A stretch of DNA of 42,931 bases from Acidimicrobiia bacterium (GTDB lineage: Bacteria; Actinomycetota; Acidimicrobiia; Spongiisociales; JAENVV01): the NCBI GenBank assembly GCA_041628225.1, contig JBFKPQ010000004.1:1-42931 (forward strand). The letters are read 5' to 3'. Positions 7,546 through 42,931 of this stretch are shown here, in pieces. The first letter of the stretch is position 1. Each line of letters opens with the position of its first letter. The translations under genes and the position numbers were made by a program. The notes under the pieces were generated by a model, which saw only the letters and a program-made list of their open reading frames with translations, was not told the DNA's origin and did no database searches.

Positions 7546-8616
7546 GTGACCTTCCCGCGCAGCTTCATCGCCGCTCTCGCCGTGAGCTTCGCCACCGTCG
7601 CATGCGGTGGGGACACCGCCGACACGACGATGGCGGCAACCACCACCGTGGCGCCGACGACGACGGCCGCACCGACGACCACCACGACGACGGTCCCGCC
7701 CACGACGACGACGACCGTCGCGGCGCTGGCACCGTCGCCGCTCAACGGTTTGCCGGCCGACGACGAGGCCAACCTCGACCGGCGCGTCATCGCCGTCAAG
7801 ATCGACAACCACTGGAACGCTCGCCCCCAGTCGGGGATCGAACAGGCCGACGCCGTGTACGAGCTGCTCGTCGAAGCCGGGCTGACCCGGTTCATCGCCC
7901 TGTTCCACGACAACGACGCCGAGTATCTCGGCCCGATGCGCTCCGGCCGTCCCACCGACCCGACGCTCGTGCGGCCACTCGATGCCACGTTCGTCATCTC
8001 CGGAGCACAGAACTGGGTGCAGAGCGTCATCCGCAACCACGGCGTGTCCTTCATCGGGGAAGTCCGACCCGCCACCTTCCGAATCTCGGGTCGCAGGGCA
8101 CCGCACAACCTGTACGTCAACACGATCGAGCTCCGGTCGGTGGCCGACGCCCGCGGCTACGCCGATGCTCCACCGACAGACATGTTCGACTGGGGTCCCC
8201 TACCGGACGGCGGCGCGCCGGCGACGGAGATCACGTTCAACTGGTCGTCGTCGACCACCGTCACCTGGCGATACGAGGACAGCCGATATGTGCGGTACCT
8301 GGGCGAGGACACCCACAACTGGAGGTCGGCCGACGGCGAGGTCGACGAACCGATCACCGCCGACACCTTGGTCGTGTTGTTCGCCAGGCGCTACACGGCA
8401 TCCGGTTCTTCGGGATCGGCCGTCCCGGCCATGGATACCGTCGGCACGGGTCGTGCCCTCGTGTTCGCCGGCGGCGAGGTCGTCGAGGGAACCTGGGAGC
8501 GCGCCGATACTGCCGAGTTGTTCTCTCTGCGCAGCATCGATGGCGAGGTCCTCTCCGTTCCTGCCGGCGTGCCCTGGATCTCGGTGTTTCCCGACAACCG
8601 GCAGGTCTCCTGGTGA
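7546..8616 (+). CDS. DUF3048-family lipoprotein
   Basis: Lipobox TVAC, Thr/Pro linker, AVKIDNH..ARPQSGIEQADAVYE..VE.GLTRF, GPMRSGR, RAPHNLY. Confidence 0.88.
   Translation: MTFPRSFIAALAVSFATVACGGDTADTTMAATTTVAPTTTAAPTTTTTTVPPTTTTTVAALAPSPLNGLPADDEANLDRRVIAVKIDNHWNARPQSGIEQADAVYELLVEAGLTRFIALFHDNDAEYLGPMRSGRPTDPTLVRPLDATFVISGAQNWVQSVIRNHGVSFIGEVRPATFRISGRRAPHNLYVNTIELRSVADARGYADAPPTDMFDWGPLPDGGAPATEITFNWSSSTTVTWRYEDSRYVRYLGEDTHNWRSADGEVDEPITADTLVVLFARRYTASGSSGSAVPAMDTVGTGRALVFAGGEVVEGTWERADTAELFSLRSIDGEVLSVPAGVPWISVFPDNRQVSW
7621..7720 (+). repeat. Low-complexity ACG/ACC-rich coding repeat (Thr/Pro linker)
   Basis: Runs of acg/acc codons encode TTTVAPTTTAAPTTTTTTVPPTTTTT. Confidence 0.8.
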
Positions 8617-9974
8617 GGCCGGCCGCCGCCATCCCAGCCGCAGTCGGCGGCGGCGGGAGCGGCGATGCCATGGCGGCGATACACGGAGCCGTCGTCGCGG
8701 CCCAGGCTTCGCAGGATCGACTCAACGCCTTCACGTCGATCGAGTCGGCCGATTCGCTCCCGACCGAGCTGCCCCGCGGCCCGCTCGCCGGGGTACCGAT
8801 CGCCCTCAAGGACCTGATCGATCATGCCGGCCGGATCACGACCTGCGGCTCGTCGTTCTACCGCCACCACGCCACGGAGTCTGCTCCGGTCGTCGACCGG
8901 TTGGAGGCCGCCGGTGCGACCGTGATCGGGCGCACAGGCCTCCACGAATTCGCGTTCGGCTTCTCGTCTGAGAACCCCTGGTTCGGTCCGGTGAAAAATC
9001 CCTGGAACGAGCAGTGGTCTCCAGGCGGTTCGTCGGGTGGCAGCGCCGCGGCTGTCGCGGCCGGCATCGTGCCGGTCGCCCTCGGCACCGACACCGGGGG
9101 GTCAGTCCGGGTACCGGCCGCATTGTGCGGCATCGTCGGCCTGAAGGTCACCCACGGACGGATCCCGCTGCGCGGCGTCTTTCCGCTCGTCGAGTCGCTC
9201 GACACGGTCGGTCCGCTGGCCCGGACCGTCGACCACGCCGCGCTCGCCTACCGCGTCATGGCGGGCCACGACCCGCACGATCCGTGGTCCGTGCCCGCCG
9301 CCGACACCACACCGCGTCCCGTGTCGCACCTCCGCGGACTCCGGATCGGCGTTCCGCAACCGTGGGTCGCCGAGGCACCGATGACCCTCGATGTCCACGC
9401 CGCTTTCACACATTGCCTTCGGCAACTCGAAGACCTCGGTGCGTCGGTGCGCGAGATCGACGTTCCGCTGCTCCTCCCGCCCGGCTCGGCGGGAGCCATC
9501 ATCGGCGGCGAAGCCGGACCTCTCCATCGAGCGTGGTTCGGTGACCCGGACAAACGTTACGGAGAGGATGTCGAAGAGCGCCTGGCAGACGCCATGGCCG
9601 TCACCGTCGACGACTACGTGGCGGCGCGGCGCTGGCAAGCCGCCCTGCGCCATCAGGTCGACGCCGTGTGGGACACCGTCGACGTGCTCGTGACCCCGAC
9701 CACCGCCGCCCGCCACAAGATCATCGGCGCCGACACGGTCGACGTCGACGGCTCACGCGTCCACTATCGCACCGTCCTGGCGTGGTTCACGGCGCTCGTC
9801 AACCAGACGGGTCTTCCGGCACTCGCCATTCCTCTGGTCCAGCCCGGAGAACCGCCGCCATCGCTGCAGCTGATCGGTCCGCGCTGGTCGGAAGACCGCC
9901 TGCTGGAGATCGGCCGAAGACTCGAGCGGCTCGGCGTGGCCGGGTTTCGCGATCCGAGCGTCGATTTCGCCTGA
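8613..9974 (+). CDS. Amidase-signature family enzyme (GatA/AtzE-like)
   Basis: GTGA overlap with upstream stop; GVPIALKD, SPGGSSGGSAAAVAAG, GTDTGGSVRVPA (Ser-cisSer-Lys triad). Confidence 0.92.
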   Translation: MRPAAAIPAAVGGGGSGDAMAAIHGAVVAAQASQDRLNAFTSIESADSLPTELPRGPLAGVPIALKDLIDHAGRITTCGSSFYRHHATESAPVVDRLEAAGATVIGRTGLHEFAFGFSSENPWFGPVKNPWNEQWSPGGSSGGSAAAVAAGIVPVALGTDTGGSVRVPAALCGIVGLKVTHGRIPLRGVFPLVESLDTVGPLARTVDHAALAYRVMAGHDPHDPWSVPAADTTPRPVSHLRGLRIGVPQPWVAEAPMTLDVHAAFTHCLRQLEDLGASVREIDVPLLLPPGSAGAIIGGEAGPLHRAWFGDPDKRYGEDVEERLADAMAVTVDDYVAARRWQAALRHQVDAVWDTVDVLVTPTTAARHKIIGADTVDVDGSRVHYRTVLAWFTALVNQTGLPALAIPLVQPGEPPPSLQLIGPRWSEDRLLEIGRRLERLGVAGFRDPSVDFA

Positions 9975-10077: not shown

Positions 10078-11943
10078 GTGGCCGAGGACACCGCCACCAT
10101 CGACGAGACGAAACCGGATCAAAGGAACCGGGTGATCATCCGGTTCGCCGGCGATTCCGGTGACGGCATGCAGGTCGCCGGAACGCGCTTCACCGAGGCG
10201 TCGGCCGCCTTCGGCAACGACCTCGCGACGTTCCCGAGCTTCCCCGCCGAGATCCGCGCTCCGGCCGGCACCCTGCCGGGCGTGTCGTCCTTCCAGGTCC
10301 AGATCGCCGACTTCGACATCCTCACGCCTGGCGACGAACCCGACGTGCTCGTGGCCATGAATCCGGCGGCCCTGAAGGCCAACCTCGGCGATCTTCGGCC
10401 GATGGGAACCATCGTCGTGAATCACGAGTCGTTCGACGAGCGGAACCTCGCCAAGGCCGGCTACGAGTCGGACCCACTCACCGACGGATCGCTCAACGGC
10501 TACAAGGTGATCGAGGTCCCGATGGAGACCCTCACGAAGGAAGCCGTCGCCGACACCGGGGTCAGCGGCCGCGACGTGTTGCGCTCCAAGAACATGTTCG
10601 CGCTCGGGTTGATGGCCTGGCTGTTCAGCCGTCCGCTGGAGCCGACCGAGACGTGGATTCGCAGGAAGTTCGCCAAGAAGCCGGAGGTCGTGGCGGCGAA
10701 CGTCGCAGCCCTCAAGGCGGGATACAACTTCGGGTTCACGACCGAGGCGACCAAGACGAGTGTCGTCGAGATCAAGCCGGCCGAATTGCCGCCCGGCGAG
10801 TACACGACCATCTCGGGGAACCTGGCCTTGGCATGGGGGCTCATCGCGGCGAGTCAGGCCGCCGAGCTGCCGCTCTTCTACGGCTCGTACCCGATCACGC
10901 CCGCATCCGACGTCCTCCACGAATTGTCCCGGCACAAGAACTTCGGAGTCCGCACGTTCCAGGCCGAGGACGAGATCGCGGCCATCGCCGCGACGATCGG
11001 CGCGGCTTTCGGAGGTCACCTGGCGGTGACCGGCACGAGCGGGCCCGGACTGGCGCTCAAGTCCGAAGCGCTGTCGCTGGCCTTCATGACCGAACTGCCG
11101 ATGATCGTGATCAACGTCCAACGCGGCGGGCCATCGACGGGCCTGCCCACGAAGCCCGAGCAGTCCGACCTGTTGTTCGCCATGTACGGCCGGCACGGCG
11201 AATCGCCGCTGCCGATCGTCGCCGCCGCCTCGCCATCGGACGCCTACGAAGTGGCCATCGAGGCTGCCCGGCTGGCGCTGACCTTCATGACACCGGTGAT
11301 CATCCTGTCCGACAACAACGTGGCCACCGGCTCCGAGCCGTGGCGCCTCCCGGAGCCGGGCAGCCTGCCGGATCTCGCCGTGCAGTTCGCCACGCAGCCA
11401 AACAGCCCCGACGGCAGCTTCCTCCCCTACCTGCGCGATGCCGACACGTTCGCCCGCCAGTGGGCGATTCCCGGCACGGCCGGTCTGGAACACCGTATCG
11501 GCGGCCTCGAGAAGCAAGAGGTCACCGGCAACGTCTCGTACGACCCCGCCAACCACCAGCTCATGACCGATACCCGGGCTTGGAAGGTCACCAACATCGC
11601 GCAGCACATCCCGGAGCTCGAGGTCGAAGATCCCGACGGGGCCGATCTGCTCGTCATCGGATGGGGTTCGAGCTATCCCGCCATCCGAGCTGCGGTGCAG
11701 AACGCCCGGCGGGCCGGCCACAACGTGGCGAGGGCGCATTTGCGTTACCTGAACCCGTTCCCGCGCAATCTCGGCGACATCCTCCGGTCCTACGACCGGG
11801 TACTCGTTCCCGAACTCAACATGGGTCAGCTGCAACGGCTCTTGCGCGCCGAGTACCTCGTCGACGCCGTCGGCATGCACAAGGTCTCTGCACAGCCGTT
11901 CAAGGTGTCCGAAGTCGAGCAGAAGATCATGGAGATGGCCTGA
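10078..11943 (+). CDS. korA: 2-oxoacid:ferredoxin oxidoreductase subunit alpha (fused gamma-alpha)
   Basis: RFAGDSGDGMQ, FPAEIRAPAGT, YPITPAS, QAEDEIAA, TSGPG, QRGGPSTGLPTK.EQSD. Confidence 0.95.
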   Translation: MAEDTATIDETKPDQRNRVIIRFAGDSGDGMQVAGTRFTEASAAFGNDLATFPSFPAEIRAPAGTLPGVSSFQVQIADFDILTPGDEPDVLVAMNPAALKANLGDLRPMGTIVVNHESFDERNLAKAGYESDPLTDGSLNGYKVIEVPMETLTKEAVADTGVSGRDVLRSKNMFALGLMAWLFSRPLEPTETWIRRKFAKKPEVVAANVAALKAGYNFGFTTEATKTSVVEIKPAELPPGEYTTISGNLALAWGLIAASQAAELPLFYGSYPITPASDVLHELSRHKNFGVRTFQAEDEIAAIAATIGAAFGGHLAVTGTSGPGLALKSEALSLAFMTELPMIVINVQRGGPSTGLPTKPEQSDLLFAMYGRHGESPLPIVAAASPSDAYEVAIEAARLALTFMTPVIILSDNNVATGSEPWRLPEPGSLPDLAVQFATQPNSPDGSFLPYLRDADTFARQWAIPGTAGLEHRIGGLEKQEVTGNVSYDPANHQLMTDTRAWKVTNIAQHIPELEVEDPDGADLLVIGWGSSYPAIRAAVQNARRAGHNVARAHLRYLNPFPRNLGDILRSYDRVLVPELNMGQLQRLLRAEYLVDAVGMHKVSAQPFKVSEVEQKIMEMA

Positions 11944-12947
11944 TGGCGAGCCTGAACTACACCCGCGGCGACTTCCAGACGGACCAGGAGGTCCGCTGGT
12001 GTCCGGGCTGTGGCGACTATACGATCCTCGCCTCCGTCCAGAAGTACCTGGCGGGTGCCGACATGCCCCGAGAGAAGTTCGTCTTCGTCTCCGGGATCGG
12101 TTGTGCCGCCCGGTTCCCCTACTACGTCAACACGTACGGCATGCACTCGATCCATGGCCGTGCCCCGGCGGTGGCGACCGGCCTCGCAACGGCACGCCCC
12201 GATTTGTCGGTCTGGGTTGTCGGGGGTGACGGCGACATGATGTCGATCGGCGGCAACCACCTGGTGCATGCGCTGCGCCGCAACGTCAACCTCAACATCT
12301 TGATGTTCAACAACCAGATCTACGGATTGACGAAGGGCCAGTACTCGCCCACGTCGGAGGTCGGCAAGACGACCAAGTCGTCGCCGATGGGATCCATCGA
12401 CCACCCCTTCAATCCAATGTCGCTCGCGCTGGGCGCCGAGGCCACGTTCGTGGCGCGAACGCTCGACATGGACACGAAGCACACGACAGAGATCCTCAAA
12501 GCCGCGCACGAACACAAGGGTGCGTCGTTCGTCGAGATCTATCAGAACTGCAACGTGTTCAACAACCACGCCTTCATCGCCCTCACCGGCAAGGAAGAAC
12601 GGGATCACAACCGCATCTTCCTCGAGCACGGCAAGCCCGTCACGTTCGGCCCGGACGGCGAACATGCCGTGATCCTCGAAAACGGTGAAGCGAAGATCGT
12701 TCCGACCGGTTCGGTCGATGGGTCACGGATCGTCGTACACGACGTCGAGAACCTCGCGCAGGCGTTCGCGCTCAGCCGGCTGAGCCACAGTCCGACCGGA
12801 CCGACCCCGCTCGGCATCTTCCGCGACAGCCCGCGGGCTACCTACGACGAGGCGGTGAGCCAGCAGATCGCGGCCGCTCAGGCGTCGAAGGGCCCTGGCG
12901 ACATCGACCAGCTGATCCGGTCACTCGGCACGTGGACGGTCGGCTGA
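11943..12947 (+). CDS. korB: 2-oxoacid:ferredoxin oxidoreductase subunit beta
   Basis: TGATG overlap; WCPGCGD, SGIGC, IHGRA, TPP motif GDGD...NNQIYGLTKGQ, QNCNVFN. Confidence 0.95.
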   Translation: MASLNYTRGDFQTDQEVRWCPGCGDYTILASVQKYLAGADMPREKFVFVSGIGCAARFPYYVNTYGMHSIHGRAPAVATGLATARPDLSVWVVGGDGDMMSIGGNHLVHALRRNVNLNILMFNNQIYGLTKGQYSPTSEVGKTTKSSPMGSIDHPFNPMSLALGAEATFVARTLDMDTKHTTEILKAAHEHKGASFVEIYQNCNVFNNHAFIALTGKEERDHNRIFLEHGKPVTFGPDGEHAVILENGEAKIVPTGSVDGSRIVVHDVENLAQAFALSRLSHSPTGPTPLGIFRDSPRATYDEAVSQQIAAAQASKGPGDIDQLIRSLGTWTVG

Positions 12948-13385
12948 CCGCTCCAACCGGTCGACGAATTCGGCCTGGGCGGGGTTGAGCAGACGTCGCG
13001 CCTCGCCCGGCGACACCCAGGCCACCCGATCGATCTCGGGGATCGTCAGTCGGCGTCCGCGCCATTCGACTTCGACGGTGTTCGACACGATGTCGTCGGG
13101 TTCGACATGGCCTTCGACCGCCCAGGCGACCACGACCTTGCCCGATCGCTGGGTGACCTCTCCCAAGGAGACGAACGGGCCTGGCGGGGCGGGAAGCGAT
13201 AGTTCCTCGGTGAACTCCCGACAGGCGGCAGCCAGTTCGTCCTCACCGGGTTCGAGCTCGCCCTTCGGGATCGACCAGGCGCCCTCGTTCCGCTTGGCCC
13301 AGAACGGGCCGCCCGGATGGGCGATGAGCACCTCCAGGCCGCGTCCGATCCGATACACGAGAAGGCCGGCGGCACGCCGCGGCAT
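12921..13385 (-). CDS. NUDIX hydrolase
   Basis: HPGGPFW...WSIPKGE and Nudix box GELEPGEDELAAACREFTEEL; PEIDR. Confidence 0.9.
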   Translation of the reverse strand: MPRRAAGLLVYRIGRGLEVLIAHPGGPFWAKRNEGAWSIPKGELEPGEDELAAACREFTEELSLPAPPGPFVSLGEVTQRSGKVVVAWAVEGHVEPDDIVSNTVEVEWRGRRLTIPEIDRVAWVSPGEARRLLNPAQAEFVDRLERSADRPRAE

Positions 13386-14053
13386 CAGAGGTGCTTTCCG
13401 GCTTCCCGCCGGGACAGGCCCGAGAGCTCGTCACCGTACCGGTCGAGATAAGCTCGGACGGCATCCGGGTTGGTCCACGCGTATTGGCGGAGCGCCCAGC
13501 CGATGGCCTTGCGGATGAAGAACTCCCGTTCGGGAGCCAACCGGGTGCACAGCTCGAACAGCAGGTCGGTGTCGGTCGCCTCCTTGTGGCGCAGCTGGCA
13601 GATCAACGACGTCCTGCGCAACCACAGGTCGTCGTCGTGTGACCAGGCGACCATCGTCGGTGTCAGCGCAGCACGTTCGGCGGCCAGCACGCCTCCGACG
13701 AGGTCGGCTGCGACCGGGTCGACGAGATCCCACCAGGCGCCTTCGACGATCATCTTCCGATACAGCGGAACCGACGCCGACACGATGTGTGCAGGATGCA
13801 GGATGGCGTAGTCGATCGCCGCGTACTTCTCTTCTCGGTGCGGCTGTTGCCACAGGTCCGCCACGGTATGCAGGTAGTCGGTGTGGGAAGCGGCAGGAGC
13901 CGCTTTCACGAGCCGCTTCACGATCGAGCGGCGCGGCGCGGCTTGTACGCCGTAGAACGGCATGTCGGTCTTCAGGTAGGCCGCCATCGCCTGCGCCTTG
14001 TCTGGGTCGGCGAGCGCAGCCAACTCGTTCCGAACGTGTTCGACGACGTCCAT
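13385..14053 (-). CDS. DNA alkylation repair protein (AlkD-like HEAT-repeat glycosylase)
   Basis: MAAYLK, REEKY, WWDLVD, LWLRR, EFFIRKAIGWALRQY, LSRREA.KHL. Start ATG 14053 inferred. Confidence 0.9.
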   Translation of the reverse strand: MDVVEHVRNELAALADPDKAQAMAAYLKTDMPFYGVQAAPRRSIVKRLVKAAPAASHTDYLHTVADLWQQPHREEKYAAIDYAILHPAHIVSASVPLYRKMIVEGAWWDLVDPVAADLVGGVLAAERAALTPTMVAWSHDDDLWLRRTSLICQLRHKEATDTDLLFELCTRLAPEREFFIRKAIGWALRQYAWTNPDAVRAYLDRYGDELSGLSRREAGKHL

Positions 14054-35273: not shown

Positions 35274-35984
35274 ATGCGACGGTTGACGATCGGGTTGTGC
35301 CTGGCGCTCGCCTCGTGCGGCGGGTCGACGTCCGACGATCTGATCGTCTTCGCCGCCTCGTCGCTCGCCGGACCGTTCGGTGAGATCGCCACCGCCTTCG
35401 AAGGCGAGCATCCCGGCGTCGATGTGCAGTTGAACTTCGCCGGCAGCACGACACTGCGTGAGCAGTTGCTCGAAGGCGCACCGGCCGACGTATTCGCGGC
35501 CGCCGACCCGCAGATCGTCAATGCCGTGACCTCGGCGGGTATCGCCACCGGTGCCGCCATCCCGTTCGCGACCAACCGGATCGTGCTCGCCGTGCCTCCT
35601 GGAAACCCGGCCGCCATCACCGGCCTCGCCGACCTCGCCGACCCAGGGCTGCTCGTCGGCGTCTGCGCTCCGCAGGTGCCGTGCGGAACCCTCGCCCGCG
35701 CCGTCCTGGCGGCGTCCGCCGCCGCGATCTCCGTCGACACCGAAGAGCCCGATGTCAGATCGCTCGTGACCAAGCTCGAGGCAGCCGAGCTCGACGCCGG
35801 GCTGGTCTACGCGTCCGACATCGGGATCCTCGAAGAGGTGCCAATGCCGGCCGGTGTCTCGGCGACGACGGTCTATCCCATCGTGACCACTTCCGACCAC
35901 CCGCTCTCCGAGGCATTCGTTGCCTTCGTCCTGTCCGCCGAGGGCCGGCGCATCCTGTCCGACCACGGGTTTGAGTTGCCATGA
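35274..35984 (+). CDS. modA: Molybdate ABC transporter substrate-binding lipoprotein
   Basis: Lipobox LASC; VFAASSL, NFAGS..L, GAPADVFAAA, QVPCG, DAGLVYASD. Confidence 0.95.
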   Translation: MRRLTIGLCLALASCGGSTSDDLIVFAASSLAGPFGEIATAFEGEHPGVDVQLNFAGSTTLREQLLEGAPADVFAAADPQIVNAVTSAGIATGAAIPFATNRIVLAVPPGNPAAITGLADLADPGLLVGVCAPQVPCGTLARAVLAASAAAISVDTEEPDVRSLVTKLEAAELDAGLVYASDIGILEEVPMPAGVSATTVYPIVTTSDHPLSEAFVAFVLSAEGRRILSDHGFELP

Positions 35985-36772
35985 GGAGGATCCGCCGTCG
36001 CACGCCGTGGCCGATCGCCACGCTGGCCCTGATCGGTCTGGCCTTCTTCGTCGTTCCACTCGCGGGTCTGCTTGCCCAAGCTCCGTGGAGCCGACTGGTC
36101 GAGGTCGCGTCGAGCGGGCTCGTGCTGGACGCCCTGGGGCTATCGCTCCTGACGTCCGCGCTCGCCACGGTCGCCGGGGCCATCGTTGGGATTCCCCTCG
36201 CCTGGTTCCTGGCTCGTTCCGAGCAGCGTGGGCTGGGAATCGTGCGGGCGATCGTGACACTGCCGCTCGTCCTGCCTCCGGTCGTCGGCGGCGCCGCCCT
36301 GCTGTTCGCGCTCGGTCGGCGCGGCTCGCTCGGAGGTCCCCTCGCCGAGGCAACCGGCTTCGTGCTGCCGTTTTCGATCTGGGGCGTCGTGGTCGCCAAT
36401 GCCTTCGTGGCGATGCCCTTCCTCATCATCACGGTCGAGGGAGCCATCCGGGCACTCGATCAGCGATACGAACACGCCGCCGCCACGCTCGGTGCGGGCC
36501 GGTGGACGACGATGCGGCGCGTGACGCTGCCCATGGTGGCGCCCGGCATCATGTCCGGGCTCGTCCTCTCGTGGGCCAGAGCGTTCGGTGAATTCGGGGC
36601 CACGATCACCTTCGCCGGGAACCTCGGCGGCCGCACCCAGACCCTCCCGCTGGCGGTGTTCGTCGCTCTCGAGTCCGACCGTGAGGCCGCCATCGTCATC
36701 AGCTTGCTCATGGTTGCCGTATCGATCACGGTGCTCGTGCTGTTGCGGGATCGATGGTGGAGGGTCACATGA
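35981..36772 (+). CDS. modB: Molybdate ABC transporter permease
   Basis: LPLVLPPVVGG, AAATLGA, WARAFGEFGATITFAGN, TQTLPLA. Confidence 0.95.
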   Translation: MRRIRRRTPWPIATLALIGLAFFVVPLAGLLAQAPWSRLVEVASSGLVLDALGLSLLTSALATVAGAIVGIPLAWFLARSEQRGLGIVRAIVTLPLVLPPVVGGAALLFALGRRGSLGGPLAEATGFVLPFSIWGVVVANAFVAMPFLIITVEGAIRALDQRYEHAAATLGAGRWTTMRRVTLPMVAPGIMSGLVLSWARAFGEFGATITFAGNLGGRTQTLPLAVFVALESDREAAIVISLLMVAVSITVLVLLRDRWWRVT

Positions 36773-37830
36773 ACGGCCTGGTCGCCGACCTCCGCGTCGT
36801 CCGTCCCGGTGGCTTTCGTCTGGCCGCCGGCCTTCACATCGATCGTGGCGAGACCGTGGCGCTGCTCGGCCCGAATGGAGCCGGGAAGTCGACCGTCGTG
36901 TTGGCCCTGGCCGGACTGCTACCCGTCGACGGTGGCGTGATCACGCTCGGAGACGAGACCCTCGACCGCCCATCGACCGGCACATTCGTTCCGGCCGAGC
37001 GACGCCGGATCGGTGTCGTCTTCCAGGATTACGCGCTCTTTCCGCACCTGACGGCACTGGACAATGTCGCGTTCGGTCTGGAGGCGCACGGCCGGTCTCG
37101 CTCCGGAGCGCGTCGGGAGGCGTCGACGTGGCTCGACAAGGTCGGCCTCGGGGAGGCGGAGCGAATACGTCCTGGTGAGCTCTCCGGCGGTCAGGCCCAA
37201 CGCGTCGCCCTGGCTCGCGCGCTCGCTTTCGGGCCCGACCTCCTGCTGCTCGACGAACCGCTCGCCGCCCTGGACGCCACCACACGACCCGCACTGCGAG
37301 CCGTGCTGGCCGAACACCTGGAAGGTTTCGAGGGTCCGCGCCTGCTCATCACCCACGACCCGCTCGAGGCGTTCGTCCTGGCGGATCGCATCTATGTCAT
37401 CGAACACGGAGCGATCACGCAGACCGGAACTGCCGACGACATCCGACTCCGGCCGCGTTCGCCCTACGCCGCCGACCTCGGCGGCACCAATCTCTTCGTC
37501 GGCACGGCGGCGGGGGGTCACCTCGACGTCGGCGGTCACCGACTCTCGGTCGCCGATCACACCGTGTCCGGTCCGGCGATCGCTACCGTGCACCCGCGGG
37601 CCATCTCGCTGCACCGACGCCCACCCGAGGGCAGCCCCCGCAACGCCTGGGAGACATCCGTGCGCCACCTCGAACCCCTGGGCGAACGAGTCCGGGTCCA
37701 GCTCGGCACACCGTTGCCCATCACCGCCGAGATCACTCCTGCGTCGGCGGCGGAACTCGGACTGGAGGCCGACGTGAAGGTGTGGATCTCGATCAAAGCG
37801 ACCGAAATCTCGATCGAGGCGCAGCCCTAG
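36769..37830 (+). CDS. modC: Molybdate ABC transporter ATP-binding protein with C-terminal TOBE domain
   Basis: ATGA overlap; GPNGAGKS, VFQDYALFPHL, LSGGQ, LLLDEP, AEITPASAAELGL...IKAT. Confidence 0.93.
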   Translation: MNGLVADLRVVRPGGFRLAAGLHIDRGETVALLGPNGAGKSTVVLALAGLLPVDGGVITLGDETLDRPSTGTFVPAERRRIGVVFQDYALFPHLTALDNVAFGLEAHGRSRSGARREASTWLDKVGLGEAERIRPGELSGGQAQRVALARALAFGPDLLLLDEPLAALDATTRPALRAVLAEHLEGFEGPRLLITHDPLEAFVLADRIYVIEHGAITQTGTADDIRLRPRSPYAADLGGTNLFVGTAAGGHLDVGGHRLSVADHTVSGPAIATVHPRAISLHRRPPEGSPRNAWETSVRHLEPLGERVRVQLGTPLPITAEITPASAAELGLEADVKVWISIKATEISIEAQP

Positions 37831-38333
37831 AGTTGGTGGGCCGCTTCGAGCCGCTCCAGCGTGTCGGCGATGTGGTGAGCCCGATCGATCACCGCGTCGA
37901 AGTCGCGCCAATCGCCGGCCTGGGCACGTGCCAGGAGCTTGGCGACGAATCCGGGCGGATCGGACGGGAGTCGACCCCCGAACGTGTAGACGGCACGCGT
38001 GTCGAGCATGTCGGCGAGTGCCTCGACCTTGCTCGGTAGCGGCTGCGGATCCTTGGCGTCGGCGCCGAGCGGTCCTGAATGGAAGATCCAGACCGGGAGG
38101 GCCACATTGCTTCGGACCATGCGCCGCAACAGCGCCACGGCTTCGGGGCGCCACCGACCGTTGTAGATGGCGCTGCCGATCACCGCGGCCTCGTAGGCCA
38201 TACGATCATCCACCTCGTCGGCGGCACGCAGGTCGATATGGTGGCCGCGCCGTTCGAGGGTGGCGGCAAACCGACCGGCCAGTTCGCGCGTGCCGCCCAT
38301 CTTCGAGGCGTAGGCTACGAGGATCCTCGCCAT
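37827..38333 (-). CDS. Flavodoxin-domain protein (HemG/Flavodoxin_5-like)
   Basis: ILVAYASKMGGT..LA, AAVIGSAIY.GRW, PVWIFHSGPLG, FGGRL, GDWRD; AGGAG SD before ATG 38333. Confidence 0.85.
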   Translation of the reverse strand: MARILVAYASKMGGTRELAGRFAATLERRGHHIDLRAADEVDDRMAYEAAVIGSAIYNGRWRPEAVALLRRMVRSNVALPVWIFHSGPLGADAKDPQPLPSKVEALADMLDTRAVYTFGGRLPSDPPGFVAKLLARAQAGDWRDFDAVIDRAHHIADTLERLEAAHQL

Positions 38334-38407
38334 GGTCGTCTCCTGGGTCGACGTCGCCTCACCGTCGCGCCTCCTGACGGCACCGACCAGGGGCTTACGG
38401 CACCCGC

Positions 38408-39352
38408 TCAGTGGGTGATCGTCGTGCCCGTCTCGCCGGCGAGCGCGTCCTCCATCCGGTCGGGCGACGTGATCACCGCGACCTCCCCACCCGATTCCAG
38501 GAACTGCACGACCGCCCGCATCTTCGGCGCCATGCTGCCTTCGGCGAAGTGGCCACCTTCTGCGAGGTAGTGCTTCGCCTCGGCGAGCGTCAGCCGATCG
38601 ACCCATCGCTGGGTCGGTTTGCGCCAGTCGAGCGCCACCTTCTCCACGGCCGTCGAGATCAGGAACGTGTCGGCCGAGACGTCGATCGCCAGCATCGCCG
38701 ACGCGAAGTCCTTGTCGATGACCGCGGGAACGCCGACGAGGTCACCGTTGGAGTCGGCCACCACCGGAATGCCCCCTCCGCCCGCCGCGATCACCGTGAC
38801 CCCGTCGTTCATGAGCGCGAGGATGATCGGTGATTCCACGATGCGTTTGGGGAGGGGCGAAGCAACGACTCGACGCCACCCCCGGCCGGCGTCCTCGACC
38901 ACGTCCCAGCCATTCTCGGCGGCTCGGCGTTGCGCCGTCTCCTCGTCGAGGAACGATCCCACTGGCTTCGCAGGGTGCGCGAACGCCGGGTCGGCCGGGT
39001 CGACTTCGACTTGCGTGACGACCGTCACCACGGACTTGTCGATGCCGAGCCGGGCGAAGTCGTGCCCCAGGTTCTGCTGCAGGGCGTAGCCGATCGATCC
39101 TTGGGTGTCGGCGACACAGACATCGAGCGGAACTTCGTGCAGTTCATGAGCGGCCAGTTCGGATCGCCGCATGATGAAGCCGACCTGGGGACCGTTGCCG
39201 TGCGTGATGGCGATTTCCCACCCACCGGCGATCAGGTTGGCGATGTGGTGATCGGTCTCGGCGGCAGCCAGGTACTGATCTTCGACCGACTGATGATCGG
39301 CGTCTTTGATCAGCGAATTCCCCCCGATCGCCACGACGGCTCGTCTCGCCAT
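38408..39352 (-). CDS. arcC: Carbamate kinase
   Basis: AIGGNSL, THGNGPQVG, TQGSIGY, PAKPVG, GWRRVVASP, GGGGIPV, AVIDKD, GSMAPK. Confidence 0.97.
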   Translation of the reverse strand: MARRAVVAIGGNSLIKDADHQSVEDQYLAAAETDHHIANLIAGGWEIAITHGNGPQVGFIMRRSELAAHELHEVPLDVCVADTQGSIGYALQQNLGHDFARLGIDKSVVTVVTQVEVDPADPAFAHPAKPVGSFLDEETAQRRAAENGWDVVEDAGRGWRRVVASPLPKRIVESPIILALMNDGVTVIAAGGGGIPVVADSNGDLVGVPAVIDKDFASAMLAIDVSADTFLISTAVEKVALDWRKPTQRWVDRLTLAEAKHYLAEGGHFAEGSMAPKMRAVVQFLESGGEVAVITSPDRMEDALAGETGTTITH

Positions 39353-39359
39353 CAGCTCC

Positions 39360-40334
39360 TCACATCGTCAGCGCCATCACGGCCTTCTGGACGTGGAGGC
39401 GGTTCTCGGCCTGATCGAACACGGCACTCTGTGGACCGTCCACGACCTCGTCGGTGACTTCGATGTTCCGGTCCGCCGGCAGAGGATGCATGTAGATGGC
39501 GTCGTTCTTGGCGAGGTCCATCCTCGCCCGATCCGTGATCCAATCCTGGTAGCGAGCCCCGATCTCAGCCGACTCTTCCAGGTCGCTCGTGGTCATCATG
39601 CAGCCCCAGCTCTTGGCGTACACGACATCGGCGTCGCGAAAGCCGGCGTCGAAGTCGTCGAGGATCTCGAACGACCCGCCGGCCGCGGTGGCGTTCTCCT
39701 CCGCTTGGGCCACCACATCGGGGTGAAGCCGAAACTCGGGCGGATGCGTCAGGCGCACGTTGGCGCCGTACCGAGTCATCAACAGGATCTCGCTCTGGGG
39801 CACCGACAGCGGCTTCTGGTAGCTGGCCGCGTACGCGTAGCTCACATCGATGGTCAGCCCACGCGGATCGCCCTTGTATTCGATGACCGTCAACAGGTCG
39901 GCGAGCGCCTGGAACGGGTGATACCAGTCGCACTGCATGTTCAGAACCGGCGTCCGGGACGCCTCGGCCACCGCCCGGATGTACTCGTTGCCGATCCCCC
40001 AGTCGACCTGCCGGATGGCGATGCCGTCGTTGTAGCGGCCCAGGATGTCGCCGATCTCCTTGGCCGTGTCGCCGTGGGAGATCTGCGTCGTCGAGCTCTC
40101 GATGAACTGGGCATGGCCGCCGAGCTGTGCCATCCCGGCCTCGAAGCTCGCTCGGGTCCGGGTGCTGGAGAAGAAGAACAGCATCGCCAGCACCTTGTCG
40201 CGCAACAGCGCATGCGACTCGCCGAGGGCGCGTCGCCGCTTCAGGTCGAGGGCGACGTCGATGACCGTGTCGAGTTCTTGCTTGGTCCACTCCTGAGTGG
40301 TGATCATGTCCCTGCCGCGCAGATGCGTCTGCAT
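39360..40334 (-). CDS. Carbamoyltransferase, YgeW-like (not a canonical ArgF)
   Basis: SSTRT, HPFQ, HPLP carbamoyl-phosphate motifs; YAYAASYQKPLSVPQS and YAKSW in place of OTCase DxxxSMG. ATG 40334 shares a base with the upstream stop (TGATG). Confidence 0.85.
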   Translation of the reverse strand: MQTHLRGRDMITTQEWTKQELDTVIDVALDLKRRRALGESHALLRDKVLAMLFFFSSTRTRASFEAGMAQLGGHAQFIESSTTQISHGDTAKEIGDILGRYNDGIAIRQVDWGIGNEYIRAVAEASRTPVLNMQCDWYHPFQALADLLTVIEYKGDPRGLTIDVSYAYAASYQKPLSVPQSEILLMTRYGANVRLTHPPEFRLHPDVVAQAEENATAAGGSFEILDDFDAGFRDADVVYAKSWGCMMTTSDLEESAEIGARYQDWITDRARMDLAKNDAIYMHPLPADRNIEVTDEVVDGPQSAVFDQAENRLHVQKAVMALTM

Positions 40335-41284
40335 CACTCCACCGCCCCGAGCACGAGGGCCAGCAGTGCCATCCGCATGACGACGCCGTAGAACGCCTCG
40401 TCCCAATACCGGGCATGGCGTGTGTCGTCGACCTCGAGAGGCAGTTCGTCCATGCGGGGCAACGAGTGGAGCACGATGGCGTCGCGCTTGGCCTTGTGGA
40501 GCACCTCGCGGGTCACCCGGTAGTTGTCGGGCGTCGTGCCCACCGTCTCACCACGTTCGTCGCGCGACATCGTGTAGTCGGCTTGCACGACCGGCTCCAT
40601 GTAGATGACGTCGGCCTCGGCGATGACGTCCATGACGTGGTCGGCGACTCGGAAGCGGGTGTCTTTGGCCACGAGCTCCGCCCGGAACTCGTCGGTCATG
40701 CCCATCGATTCGGGTGCCACGTAGATGACCTCGGCGTCGAACTGACTGAGGGCGTAGCCGAGCGAGTGCATGGTGCGCATCCGCAGGTCGCCCACCGCCA
40801 GCCAGGTGGTGCCGTCGAGCGTGCCGCGCTCGCGGAGCACCGTGAAGAAGTCGGTGAGGATCTGCGTCGGATGCTCCCCCCAGCCGTCCCCGCCGTTGAT
40901 GATGGGAATCGACGCCCACTTCGCCACCTCGTGGGGCGCTCCCTGCTCGAAGTGGCGCATGACCGCCACATCGCCGTAGTACTCGAGCATGCGGGCGGTG
41001 TCTTTCAACGACTCCTGGTAGAAGTCCCCGGCCCGGGTCATCTTGGCGTCGGAGAAGCCGGTCACCCGGCCCCCGAGCCGCAGCATGGCGGATTCGTGGG
41101 CCAGCCGGGTCCGGGTCGAAGGCTGGTAGAACGCCGTGACCAGGATCTTCTCGGCCAGCAGTTCGATCGTCCGGCGGCGGCGAGCCACCGGTTCGAACTC
41201 GGCCGCCACATCGAACACGTGGAAGAACTCCGACCGTTCAAAGTCCTTGAGAGACAGGATGTCTCGGCCAACGAAGCTGCGCAT
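40334..41284 (-). CDS. Aspartate-carbamoyltransferase-like protein with remodelled acceptor site
   Basis: PSTRT, MRH, NGGDG.GEHPTQ, VGDL..RTMHSL, HSLPR; lacks the KGE and RxQxER motifs; AGGAG SD. Confidence 0.88.
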   Translation of the reverse strand: MRSFVGRDILSLKDFERSEFFHVFDVAAEFEPVARRRRTIELLAEKILVTAFYQPSTRTRLAHESAMLRLGGRVTGFSDAKMTRAGDFYQESLKDTARMLEYYGDVAVMRHFEQGAPHEVAKWASIPIINGGDGWGEHPTQILTDFFTVLRERGTLDGTTWLAVGDLRMRTMHSLGYALSQFDAEVIYVAPESMGMTDEFRAELVAKDTRFRVADHVMDVIAEADVIYMEPVVQADYTMSRDERGETVGTTPDNYRVTREVLHKAKRDAIVLHSLPRMDELPLEVDDTRHARYWDEAFYGVVMRMALLALVLGAVE

Positions 41285-41361
41285 GTCGTACTCCTACGTC
41301 GTCGTGCGGCGAACTCCGCGGGCAGTGGTCAGCGGTCCGCCGGTCGACCTCCAGCAGATCA

Positions 41362-41399
41362 AATGGGTTCGGCAGCAACCAGCGGCCGAACGGCCCATT
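41362..41399 (-). other. Intergenic stem-loop after the deaminase gene
   Basis: Minus-strand AAUGGG-(CCG bulge)-UUCGGC-11-nt loop-GCCGAA-CCCAUU followed by UGAUCU. Confidence 0.45.
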
Positions 41400-41410
41400 C
41401 GAGTGGGACG

Positions 41411-42775
41411 TCACGAGATCAAGCTACGCGCCAGAGCTCGGTGCGTGGCGGCGTGGCGTTCCTCGTCGATATGGACGAGGCGTCCGTCGGCGACGACGCG
41501 CCGACCGCCGACGACCACATGCACCGCTCGCTGGGGAGCACAGAGGAGAAGCGCCGCGACGGGATCGGCGGCGCCGGCATGCTCGAGGCCGGAGATGTCG
41601 AACACGCCGACGTCGGCCGCCTTGCCGACTTCGATGGAGCCCACGTCGACGCGACCCAGAACGGCCGCACCACCGCGGGTGGCGAGTCGCAGCGCGGTGC
41701 GCGCCTCGAGCTGGGGTCCGCCGTCGCCCAACCCGGGTGCGGTGGCAAGACGCGCCAGCAGCATCGCCTGACGGGCTTCGGCGAGCAGGTGCGAGCCGTC
41801 GTTGGAGGCCGACCCGTCGACGCCCAGCCCCACAGGCACCCCATGGTCCAAGTAGGCGCGCAACGGTGCGATCCCCGACGCCAGGCGCATGTTGGAGGTC
41901 GGGCAATGCGCCACACCCGTCCCCGCGTGGGCCATCCTTCCGATCTCGGCGGCGACGACGTGCACGGCGTGCGCCCACCACACATCGTCGCCCACCCATC
42001 CCACCGACTCGGCGAACGCCACCGGTGGCCGACCGAACGTGGATCGGCAGTAGTCGTCCTCATCCGCGGTCTCGGCGAGATGTGTGTGCAGACGCACGCC
42101 ACGATCCCGAGCCAGTTCGGCGGCGGCGGCCATGAGTTGCGGGGACACGGAGAACGGTGAGCACGGAGCAACGACCACCTGCCGCATCGAGCCCCGCTCC
42201 GGATCATGGAACGCGTCGATCACCCGCTCGGTGTCGGCGAGGATGGCTTCCTCGTCCTCGACCACGGAGTCGGGCGGGAGTCCGCCGGCCGACTCGCCAA
42301 CCGACATCGAACCGCGTGAGCCATGGAAACGCAGACCGACCCGGGCGGCGGCCTCGAACTGGTCGTCGAGTCGCGAGCCGTTGGGCCACAGGTACTGGTG
42401 GTCGAACGCGGTCGTGCAACCCGACAGCGCCAGCTCGGCCAGGCCGGTGATGGTGGCGGTGGAGACGTGTTCGGGAGTGAGTCGAGACCAGATCGGATAG
42501 AGGGTGCGGAGCCAGTCGAACAGGCCGGCGTCCTGGGCGCCGGGCACGGCCCGCGTCAGCGTCTGATACAGATGGTGGTGCGTGTTGACGAGCCCCGGCA
42601 CGACGACGGCACCGGTGGCGTCGATGACGTCGTCGGCCGTGCCGGGCAGGTCGGTGGTGGCCCCGACCTGGGTGATCCACCCGTCTTCCGCGTACACACC
42701 ACCGTCGACGATCTCCGTCCCGGCGTCGTCCATCGTCGCCACCACGGCGGCATTGCGGACGAGGAGGGTGCTCAC
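41411..42775 (-). CDS. 8-oxoguanine-deaminase-like amidohydrolase
   Basis: [49 protein letters not shown]; GTG 42775 overlaps the upstream stop (GTGA). Confidence 0.9.
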
Positions 42776-42931
42776 CGGTGGGCCCGCAGCGTGGCCAGCA
42801 CGTGGTCGGGGGTGAGGGGGAACCGATCGAACCACACACCGGTGGCGTCGTGGAGGGCGGCGGTCACCGCCGCCGCGTACGGGATGAACGGCATCTCGGC
42901 CATGCCGCGCGCTCCGAACGGACCGAGCGGG
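42772..42931 (-). CDS. Xanthine dehydrogenase-family molybdopterin-binding subunit, C-terminal fragment (runs off the window)
   Basis: Manual translation (not in ORF track): [52 protein letters not shown], matching the family GPFGAKGxGE...A..DATG.....P.TP terminus, including the catalytic Glu. Confidence 0.88.

Follow-up and report, generated by a model that had tools for sequence, protein, structure and literature searches.

A pseudo-aspartate carbamoyltransferase lacking the aspartate side-chain site is paired with a second carbamoyltransferase and probably acts in purine breakdown

A four-gene locus and the acceptor site of pATC

The window analysed here, a stretch of 42,931 bases from an Acidimicrobiia bacterium (GenBank assembly GCA_041628225.1), is one entire contig (JBFKPQ010000004.1, C4) of a draft genome of 2.88 Mb in 316 contigs, which is 93% complete and has about 66% G+C. 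Four genes on the minus strand lie at its right end and encode an amidohydrolase, a paralogue of aspartate carbamoyltransferase (ATCase) that we refer to as pATC (for pseudo-ATCase), a second carbamoyltransferase (TC2) and a carbamate kinase. The pATC gene (40334..41284, minus strand) is an open reading frame of 316 codons with an ATG start and the Pfam domains OTCace_N and OTCace. The sequence ahead of it is an intergenic spacer of 126 nt (41285..41410, minus strand), in which an AGGAG motif can be read directly 8 nt ahead of the ATG. The pATC stop and the TC2 start share one base (TGATG). TC2 (39360..40334, minus strand) has 324 residues when read from the ATG at 40334, the position at which the alignments of its homologues also begin, and carries the motifs STRT, HPFQ and HPLP. 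Carbamate kinase (38408..39352, minus strand; 314 residues) begins 7 nt past the TC2 stop. It exceeds the TIGR00746 cut-off (367.3 vs 358.25) and shares 48% identity with E. coli YqeA.

The closest solved relative of pATC, found with HMMER among PDB chains, is the ATCase of Pyrococcus abyssi (1ml4, E 1e-65), and identity to E. coli PyrB is 36%. Of two ATCase models, TIGR00670 is exceeded (250.8 vs a cut-off of 236.95) and NF002032 is not reached (225 vs 263). The models of YgeW, which belongs to the knotted, AOTCase-like branch, are missed by a wide margin (27.1 vs 453 for NF005538 and 24.5 vs 500 for TIGR03316).

Glu50 and Arg234 are partners in ATCase domain closure. To describe the active site we use the residue numbers of mature E. 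coli PyrB (taken from NC_000913.3) and, as the main alignment, a profile-profile comparison (hhalign) between 20 ATCases whose aspartate site is intact and 11 members of the pATC clade. pATC shares the fold and the carbamoyl-phosphate site of PyrB (1ml4): STRT, Arg105 (in MRH), HPTQ and Arg167 are all retained, and the loop ahead of Arg167 is one residue shorter than in ATCases. The differences lie elsewhere. In the 80s loop Ser80 is replaced by Arg84, Lys83 by Phe88 and Lys84 by Tyr89, and Asp87 is inserted. In the 228-234 stretch Thr228 becomes Glu230, Arg229 becomes Pro231, Gln231 becomes Val233 and Arg234 becomes Asp236. The HP[LG]P motif of ATCases is replaced by HSLP, which is present in 11/11 clade members, and Glu50 is replaced by Gln in a 12-row MAFFT alignment. 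All 20 true ATCases retain Lys84, Arg229 and Gln231 (K85, R230 and Q232 when the initiator Met is counted). Within the clade, the replaced positions are invariant in 11/11 members, labelled as Acidimicrobiia, Chloroflexota and Nitriliruptoraceae.

The same residue changes were obtained from the HMMER alignments to PDB chains and from a 96-row MAFFT alignment, so that three of the four alignments agree, and these three are free of gaps in the 228-234 stretch. The 12-row MAFFT alignment placed EPVVQADY as an eight-residue insertion, with an Arg at position 231; we set this placement aside because the three other alignments disagree with it. Even this alignment does not restore the Arg229/Gln231 pair.

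The first-pass annotation, made from the sequence alone, had proposed that the carbamoyl-phosphate motifs and the Arg167 equivalent are kept and that the site for the aspartate beta-carboxylate is lost, with Ser80 changed to Arg, Lys84 and Arg229 absent and HPLP turned into HSLP. HMMER, the 96-row MAFFT alignment and hhalign bear out the loss, and the profile-profile alignment the retained residues. One detail has to be corrected: the Glu that closes the 80s loop, which had been taken for a new residue, is the conserved Glu86; it is Asp87 and Glu230 that are new among the acidic residues. The substitution of Phe, Tyr and Pro for the cationic Lys83, Lys84 and Arg229, together with the gain of Asp87 and Glu230, fits an acceptor whose side chain would end in an amino or ureido group and not in a carboxylate, in line with the first-pass annotation.

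Paralogues, relatives and tree position

The genome contains four places with transcarbamylase-like sequence: pATC, TC2, argF on contig C26 and a pyrB fragment on contig C112. The argF gene is an ordinary one, with HPCQ, DGNN and HCLP motifs. The separate canonical pyrB that the first-pass annotation called for is found at the very start of C112, where the last 82 codons of a bacterial-type gene (HPGP motif) are followed by pyrC and carA. pATC is thus a paralogue and not the pyrB of the cell, and it lies outside any pyr operon. Wherever a source name appears among the 120 pATC homologues listed, it is aspartate carbamoyltransferase; the nearest named one, at 84% identity, comes from an Acidimicrobiia metagenome-assembled genome. 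These names arise because the open reading frame narrowly exceeds the TIGR00670 cut-off.

TC2 is an OTCase-like carbamoyltransferase that, judged by its model scores and motifs, stands outside the named classes. It reaches no NCBIfam cut-off at all, among them those for OTCase (254 vs 306), AOTCase (244 vs 288), YgeW (189 vs 453) and PTCase. Its best PDB match is the OTCase of P. furiosus (1pvv, 212 bits), YgeW (3q98) scores 171 bits, and identity to E. coli YgeW is 35%. The Cys of the OTCase HCLP motif is missing, and the sequence reads HPLP.

ATCase paralogues with the same motif losses as pATC were described as pseudo-ATCases by Barba, Dutoit, Legrain and Labedan in 2013 (PMC4016543). The note of a "new specificity" therefore applies to the pATC clade and not to the idea. 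According to the available text of that report, subgroup 1 (Rubrobacter Rxyl_2847, HPLA) phosphorolyses allantoate to ureidoglycine and carbamoyl phosphate and has a carbamate kinase gene adjacent. In subgroup 2 (Nocardioides sp. JS614) the neighbouring genes are a homologue of ygeW, xdhABC and hyuA. Subgroup 3, with the motifs HSLP and V-x-P, is of marine origin and is found with a Na+ symporter and an asparaginase; the same text gives no activity for subgroups 2 and 3. pATC keeps STRT and HPTQ, has neither HP[LG]P nor R-x-Q, and occurs in an organism with a genuine ATCase. In its HSLP motif (H[ST]LP in subgroup 2), the loss of R-x-Q and the genuine pyrB elsewhere in the genome it resembles subgroups 2 and 3. 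Its context is like that of subgroup 2, since it adjoins a ygeW-like carbamoyltransferase, and xdh and hyuA genes lie in the subgroup 2 neighbourhood. Motif 4 reads P-V-V in the profile alignment, or V-Q-A or V-Q-P one register along; subgroup 2 has G-x-[SC], and the V-x-P of subgroup 3 is not cleanly matched. The Na+ symporter and asparaginase context of subgroup 3 is not seen at pATC. These comparisons relate published motifs to our protein, and not sequence to sequence.

The family is large. Scanning one genome per species, we found at least 590 stretches that encode relatives with the 80s-loop or GDGWG motif of the clade; the best 80 of them are 72-77% identical and come mostly from Chloroflexota (Anaerolineae), Acidimicrobiia and Nitriliruptoria metagenome-assembled genomes. 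A HMMER search of representatives clustered at 50% identity gave 10,772 matches at E ≤0.001, and 94 of the 150 listed were full length (290-360 aa). Removing four broken sequences (P0127, P0130, P0144 and P0254) and adding pATC and E. coli PyrB left a set of 92 rows. Arg229 and Gln231 are both kept in 49 rows, 39 have an Arg at position 80 and neither of the two residues, and four are mixed. In a quick IQ-TREE tree with a midpoint root and support from the Shimodaira-Hasegawa-like approximate likelihood ratio test (SH-aLRT), the 49 rows with both residues and one mixed row form a single group (SH-aLRT 93). The remaining rows split into several deep lineages, and pATC forms a clade with two representatives (SH-aLRT 98).

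Gene neighbourhoods and purine-breakdown genes

Gene content around pATC was counted by tblastn over 80 related loci, of which 39, mostly Chloroflexota to judge by their record titles, were covered for at least 8 kb on both sides (full loci). Among the 66 loci whose downstream DNA extends for 3 kb or more, 58 have TC2 on the same strand within 3 kb downstream of pATC; among the 61 that extend for 5 kb or more, 53 have the kinase within 5 kb. A TC2 match is absent from 11 loci, seven of which have less than 1.3 kb of DNA on that side. Across the full loci we found TC2 in 38, carbamate kinase in 36, a GntR regulator in 31, and an 8-oxoguanine-deaminase-like gene and a BMP-type ABC transporter in 29 each. 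Less frequent are adenine deaminase (24), a YgeY-family hydrolase (18), a threonine-synthase-like (ThrS-like) enzyme dependent on pyridoxal phosphate (PLP; 14), a CysK-like PLP enzyme (9) and an XdhA-like protein (6); YgeX was found in none of the 39.

Two other kinds of gene recur in these loci. In 13 of the 39 full loci, carbamate kinase is followed by a conserved protein of some 670 residues that matches no Pfam or NCBIfam model (e.g. L018 13838-15853). Many Chloroflexota loci have small four-helix-bundle genes (TIGR02436) inserted between pATC, TC2 and the kinase, in some cases three to an operon (for example L021 at about 11000-14000, L037, L079 and L080).

We sampled 151 genomes of the class. 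Orthologues of pATC (at least 68% identity) occur in 12, all from one order, and TC2 orthologues occur in the identical 12 genomes; three genomes beyond these 12 have only a paralogue that is 41-45% identical to pATC. A short SsnA-like gene is present in all 12 (E 1e-64 to 1e-70). The YgeY family was detected in none of the 151 genomes at E ≤1e-60. A second ATCase-like paralogue, 41-45% identical to pATC, is found in six genomes of the same order (G013, G058, G062, G066, G094 and G146).

Regions from seven relatives of the same order were inspected (G054, G146, G130, G078, G098, G106 and G110), and carbamate kinase accompanies pATC in all seven. The gene order in G054, G146 and G130 is pATC, TC2, carbamate kinase, ThrS-like, CysK-like, SsnA-like and YgfK, and XdhD is present in the loci of G054 and G130. 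G078 begins with SsnA-like and YgfK, continues with pATC, TC2, kinase, ThrS-like and CysK-like, and has XdhD nearby. In these four genomes the pATC-TC2-kinase genes, SsnA-like, YgfK and the two PLP enzymes form a contiguous run on one strand. G098 and G106, which belong to the same family as the window's genome, have pATC, TC2, kinase, (CN-hydrolase), XdhD-like, SsnA-like, YgfK-like and a BMP transporter. In G110, TC2 is divergent from pATC and the kinase, and SsnA, YgfK and HyuA stand about 20 kb off, with all parts within 25 kb; this is the only one of the seven loci with a HyuA homologue.

The window's own genome has a comparable set of genes on another contig, C24 (L091 1-20000 and L092). 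The cluster encodes XDH subunits, a BMP-type ABC transporter, YgfK-like, SsnA-like and XdhD-like proteins, a CN-hydrolase, a D-hydantoinase and two PLP enzymes. The XdhD-like protein scores 807 against the TIGR03311 cut-off of 830. The D-hydantoinase is 42% identical to E. coli HyuA, exceeds the dihydropyrimidinase equivalog TIGR02033 (527 vs 393) and gives 282 bits on the allantoinase model, where the cut-off is 357.85. The YgfK-like protein has 580 aa and covers only the N-terminal, PydA-like part of its model, and the SsnA-like protein is short (339 aa). In its gene content this cluster resembles the upstream half of the pathway for reductive urate breakdown, with the PLP enzymes in the place of YgeX. 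No uricase was found in this 93% complete genome, neither AllC nor YgeX has a match at cut-off there, and YgeY has a weak match. A separate M20-family protein on contig C66 (5327-6484, minus strand; L094) stays below the cut-off of the model for allantoate amidohydrolase (219 vs 598 bits) and could be an N-carbamoyl-amino-acid hydrolase.

Upstream of pATC in the window lies the co-directional amidohydrolase of the 8-oxoguanine deaminase family (41411..42835, minus strand; NF006055 662.9 vs cut-off 532). Its start is uncertain: the alignments of its homologues begin near 42775, and the contig ends 96 nt beyond the gene. Directly downstream of the kinase, a flavodoxin-like gene is found together with a molybdate-type ABC transporter (modABC; binding protein, permease and an ATPase with a TOBE domain) at 35274-37830 on the plus strand and 37827-38606 on the minus strand, and the ATP synthase operon lies further along. 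The modABC and flavodoxin-like neighbours would fit a need of the XDH-type enzymes for molybdenum and low-potential electrons. Elsewhere in the window, the longest open reading frame of an amidase gene (7602-9974, plus strand) has its Pfam Amidase domain at residues 380-768, and the roughly 380 N-terminal residues have no match. This is probably either an over-long call in high-GC DNA or a fusion to an unknown domain.

Proposed reaction, alternatives and significance

We consider it very probable that pATC serves purine breakdown as a catabolic carbamoyltransferase and that it is not an ATCase. Support for the catabolic direction suggested by the first-pass annotation comes from carbamate kinase, encoded two genes downstream, a gene that recurs in 36 of 39 full loci and in 7 of 7 relatives of the same order. 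Its guess of diaminopropionate or albizziin as the acceptor gains support from the gene context as well, since these are the products that would be expected from the 2,3-diureidopropionate of the reductive urate pathway.

In this pathway (the 2,8-dioxopurine pathway) of E. coli, XdhD, YgfK, SsnA and HyuA lead to 2,3-diureidopropionate. YgeW then removes one ureido group with phosphate and YqeA makes ATP; the second ureido group is hydrolysed by YgeY, and YgeX converts diaminopropionate to pyruvate, as set out in the available text of two reports (PMC12507026; bioRxiv 10.1101/2025.04.24.650524). Allantoate, the compound cleaved by Rxyl_2847, is a diureido acid one carbon shorter than 2,3-diureidopropionate (PMC4016543). 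The pATC locus resembles the YgeW/YqeA module in that a carbamoyltransferase and a carbamate kinase occur amid XdhD, YgfK, SsnA and HyuA homologues. It differs in its enzymes: E. coli has one transferase and the hydrolase YgeY, whereas the pATC locus has two transferases and YgeY is missing from the class sample.

With moderate confidence we propose that pATC takes the YgeY step of the reductive urate pathway by phosphorolysis, removing the 2-ureido group from either diureidopropionate or 3-amino-2-ureidopropionate. We infer the substrate from gene context and homology; regiochemistry and reaction direction are likewise predictions. The group that ATCase carbamoylates is an alpha-amino group, with Arg167 binding the alpha-carboxylate, and OTCase-like enzymes carbamoylate a side-chain amino group. 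Because ATCase is specific for the alpha-amino group and Arg167 is kept in pATC, and because OTCase-like enzymes are specific for the side chain, we assign the 2-ureido group to pATC and the 3-ureido group to TC2. Urate would be reduced and both purine rings opened by the XdhD, YgfK, SsnA and HyuA homologues encoded elsewhere in the genome, yielding 2,3-diureidopropionate. pATC would then cleave the ureido group on the alpha-carbon in a phosphate-dependent reaction, converting either diureidopropionate to albizziin or 3-amino-2-ureidopropionate to 2,3-diaminopropionate. The translationally coupled TC2 would cleave the 3-ureido group, and the two steps could take place in either order. Each cleavage would release carbamoyl phosphate, from which the adjacent carbamate kinase would form ATP, and the PLP enzymes would turn diaminopropionate into pyruvate and ammonia. 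pATC would take the place of YgeY where YgeY is absent, as in the class Acidimicrobiia. If pATC replaces this hydrolase, the removal of both ureido groups would conserve energy. It is possible, though we put this forward more tentatively, that pATC and TC2 make the end of the pathway fully phosphorolytic, with two ATP per purine vs one, and that the pATC scaffold has been rebuilt for D-configured N-alpha-carbamoyl-2,3-diaminopropionate.

Several observations weigh against this proposal. YgeY-family genes occur alongside both transferases in 17 of the 39 full loci, so the replacement of YgeY is not valid everywhere. Within 10 kb, the full loci contain an SsnA-like gene in 1/39, a HyuA-like gene in 1/39 and a YgfK-like gene in 2/39. 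For these loci the link to the pathway genes rests on five carriers chosen for their long contigs, among them three that are Chloroflexota by record title and one Candidatus Leptovillus affinis; an SsnA-family gene is found elsewhere in the genome in 5/5 of these, above the curated SsnA cut-off in 4/5, and a D-hydantoinase above cut-off in 3/5. In the class sample, an SsnA-like gene at E ≤1e-40 is present in 62 of the 151 genomes, many of which have no pATC, compared with 12 genomes that have pATC, and none of the SsnA-like genes in the sample reaches the curated cut-off. An AlphaFold2 model of pATC, built from an alignment of 11 clade sequences, is poor, with a mean predicted local distance difference test score (pLDDT) of 62.5 and active-site regions below 50, and does not back the binding-site reading. 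Two papers from 2025 disagree on the ureido group cleaved by YgeW, which leaves the order of the steps open; the stereochemistry is an open point too (PMC12990295). The pathway intermediates are reported as R, i.e. D-configured, whereas ATCase uses L-aspartate (bioRxiv 10.1101/2025.04.24.650524, in its available text).

The name in the databases would make pATC a genuine second ATCase of the archaeal type. Its TIGR00670 score, the ATCases among its best solved relatives and the names of its listed homologues all point in this direction, and we nevertheless find the idea hardly credible: Lys84, Arg229 and Gln231 are absent in the profile-profile alignment, the NF002032 cut-off is not reached, the genome has its pyrB-pyrC-carA locus on another contig, the conserved gene context is catabolic, and in the quick midpoint-rooted tree pATC stands outside the group of 49 representatives with Arg229 and Gln231. 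A role as a ureidoglycine carbamoyltransferase, acting on allantoate in the oxidative urate pathway as Rxyl_2847 does, appears quite improbable. Both proteins are ATCase-derived members of the same broad pseudo-ATCase assemblage with a carbamate kinase gene adjacent, as far as the text available for Rxyl_2847 describes it (PMC4016543). The upstream 8-oxoguanine deaminase would yield urate, and the C24 hydantoinase has its sub-threshold allantoinase score. However, pATC has HSLP and PVV in place of the HPLA and AIA/AIS/SIA motifs of subgroup 1. The uricase and allantoinase of the oxidative pathway were not found for pATC, and AllC did not reach its cut-off. The operon partners in its relatives are SsnA, YgfK and XdhD, and not uricase or allantoinase.

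More weight, though still well short of probable, falls to the view that pATC acts on another ureido compound supplied by its neighbours, such as N-carbamoyl-beta-alanine from reductive pyrimidine breakdown, oxalurate or an undescribed intermediate. The C24 D-hydantoinase passes the dihydropyrimidinase equivalog, the CN-hydrolase of the same cluster is beta-ureidopropionase-like, and the YgfK-like protein matches only the PydA-like part of its model. The loci that combine YgeY with both transferases also suggest more than two ureido or amide cleavages. N-carbamoyl-beta-alanine has no alpha-carboxylate, yet Arg167, which binds this group, is retained. The co-occurrence of the two transferases in 12 of 12 genomes suits a diureido substrate, and the homologues of XdhD and SsnA that share the operon indicate purines.

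pATC is not categorically new. It is a widespread variant both of the pseudo-ATCases and of the carbamoyltransferase-kinase module in purine catabolism, common in environmental Chloroflexota and Acidimicrobiia. Our literature search, made mostly without subscription journals, found no function assigned to the pATC clade and no two-transferase variant of the pathway. A large and conserved family, with 72-77% identity between phyla and members in at least 590 stretches of species-representative genomes, is systematically named aspartate carbamoyltransferase, and such naming would distort metabolic reconstructions of how uncultured Chloroflexota and Actinomycetota make pyrimidines. The proposal also supplies a testable function for the pseudo-ATCases; except for one subgroup, these have remained uncharacterised since 2013. 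If it is true, pATC and TC2 would be a natural regiospecific pair that bears on which ureido group is cleaved first, a question posed in a 2025 commentary (PMC12990295), and an energy-conserving variant would be added to the reductive urate pathway, itself worked out only in 2025.

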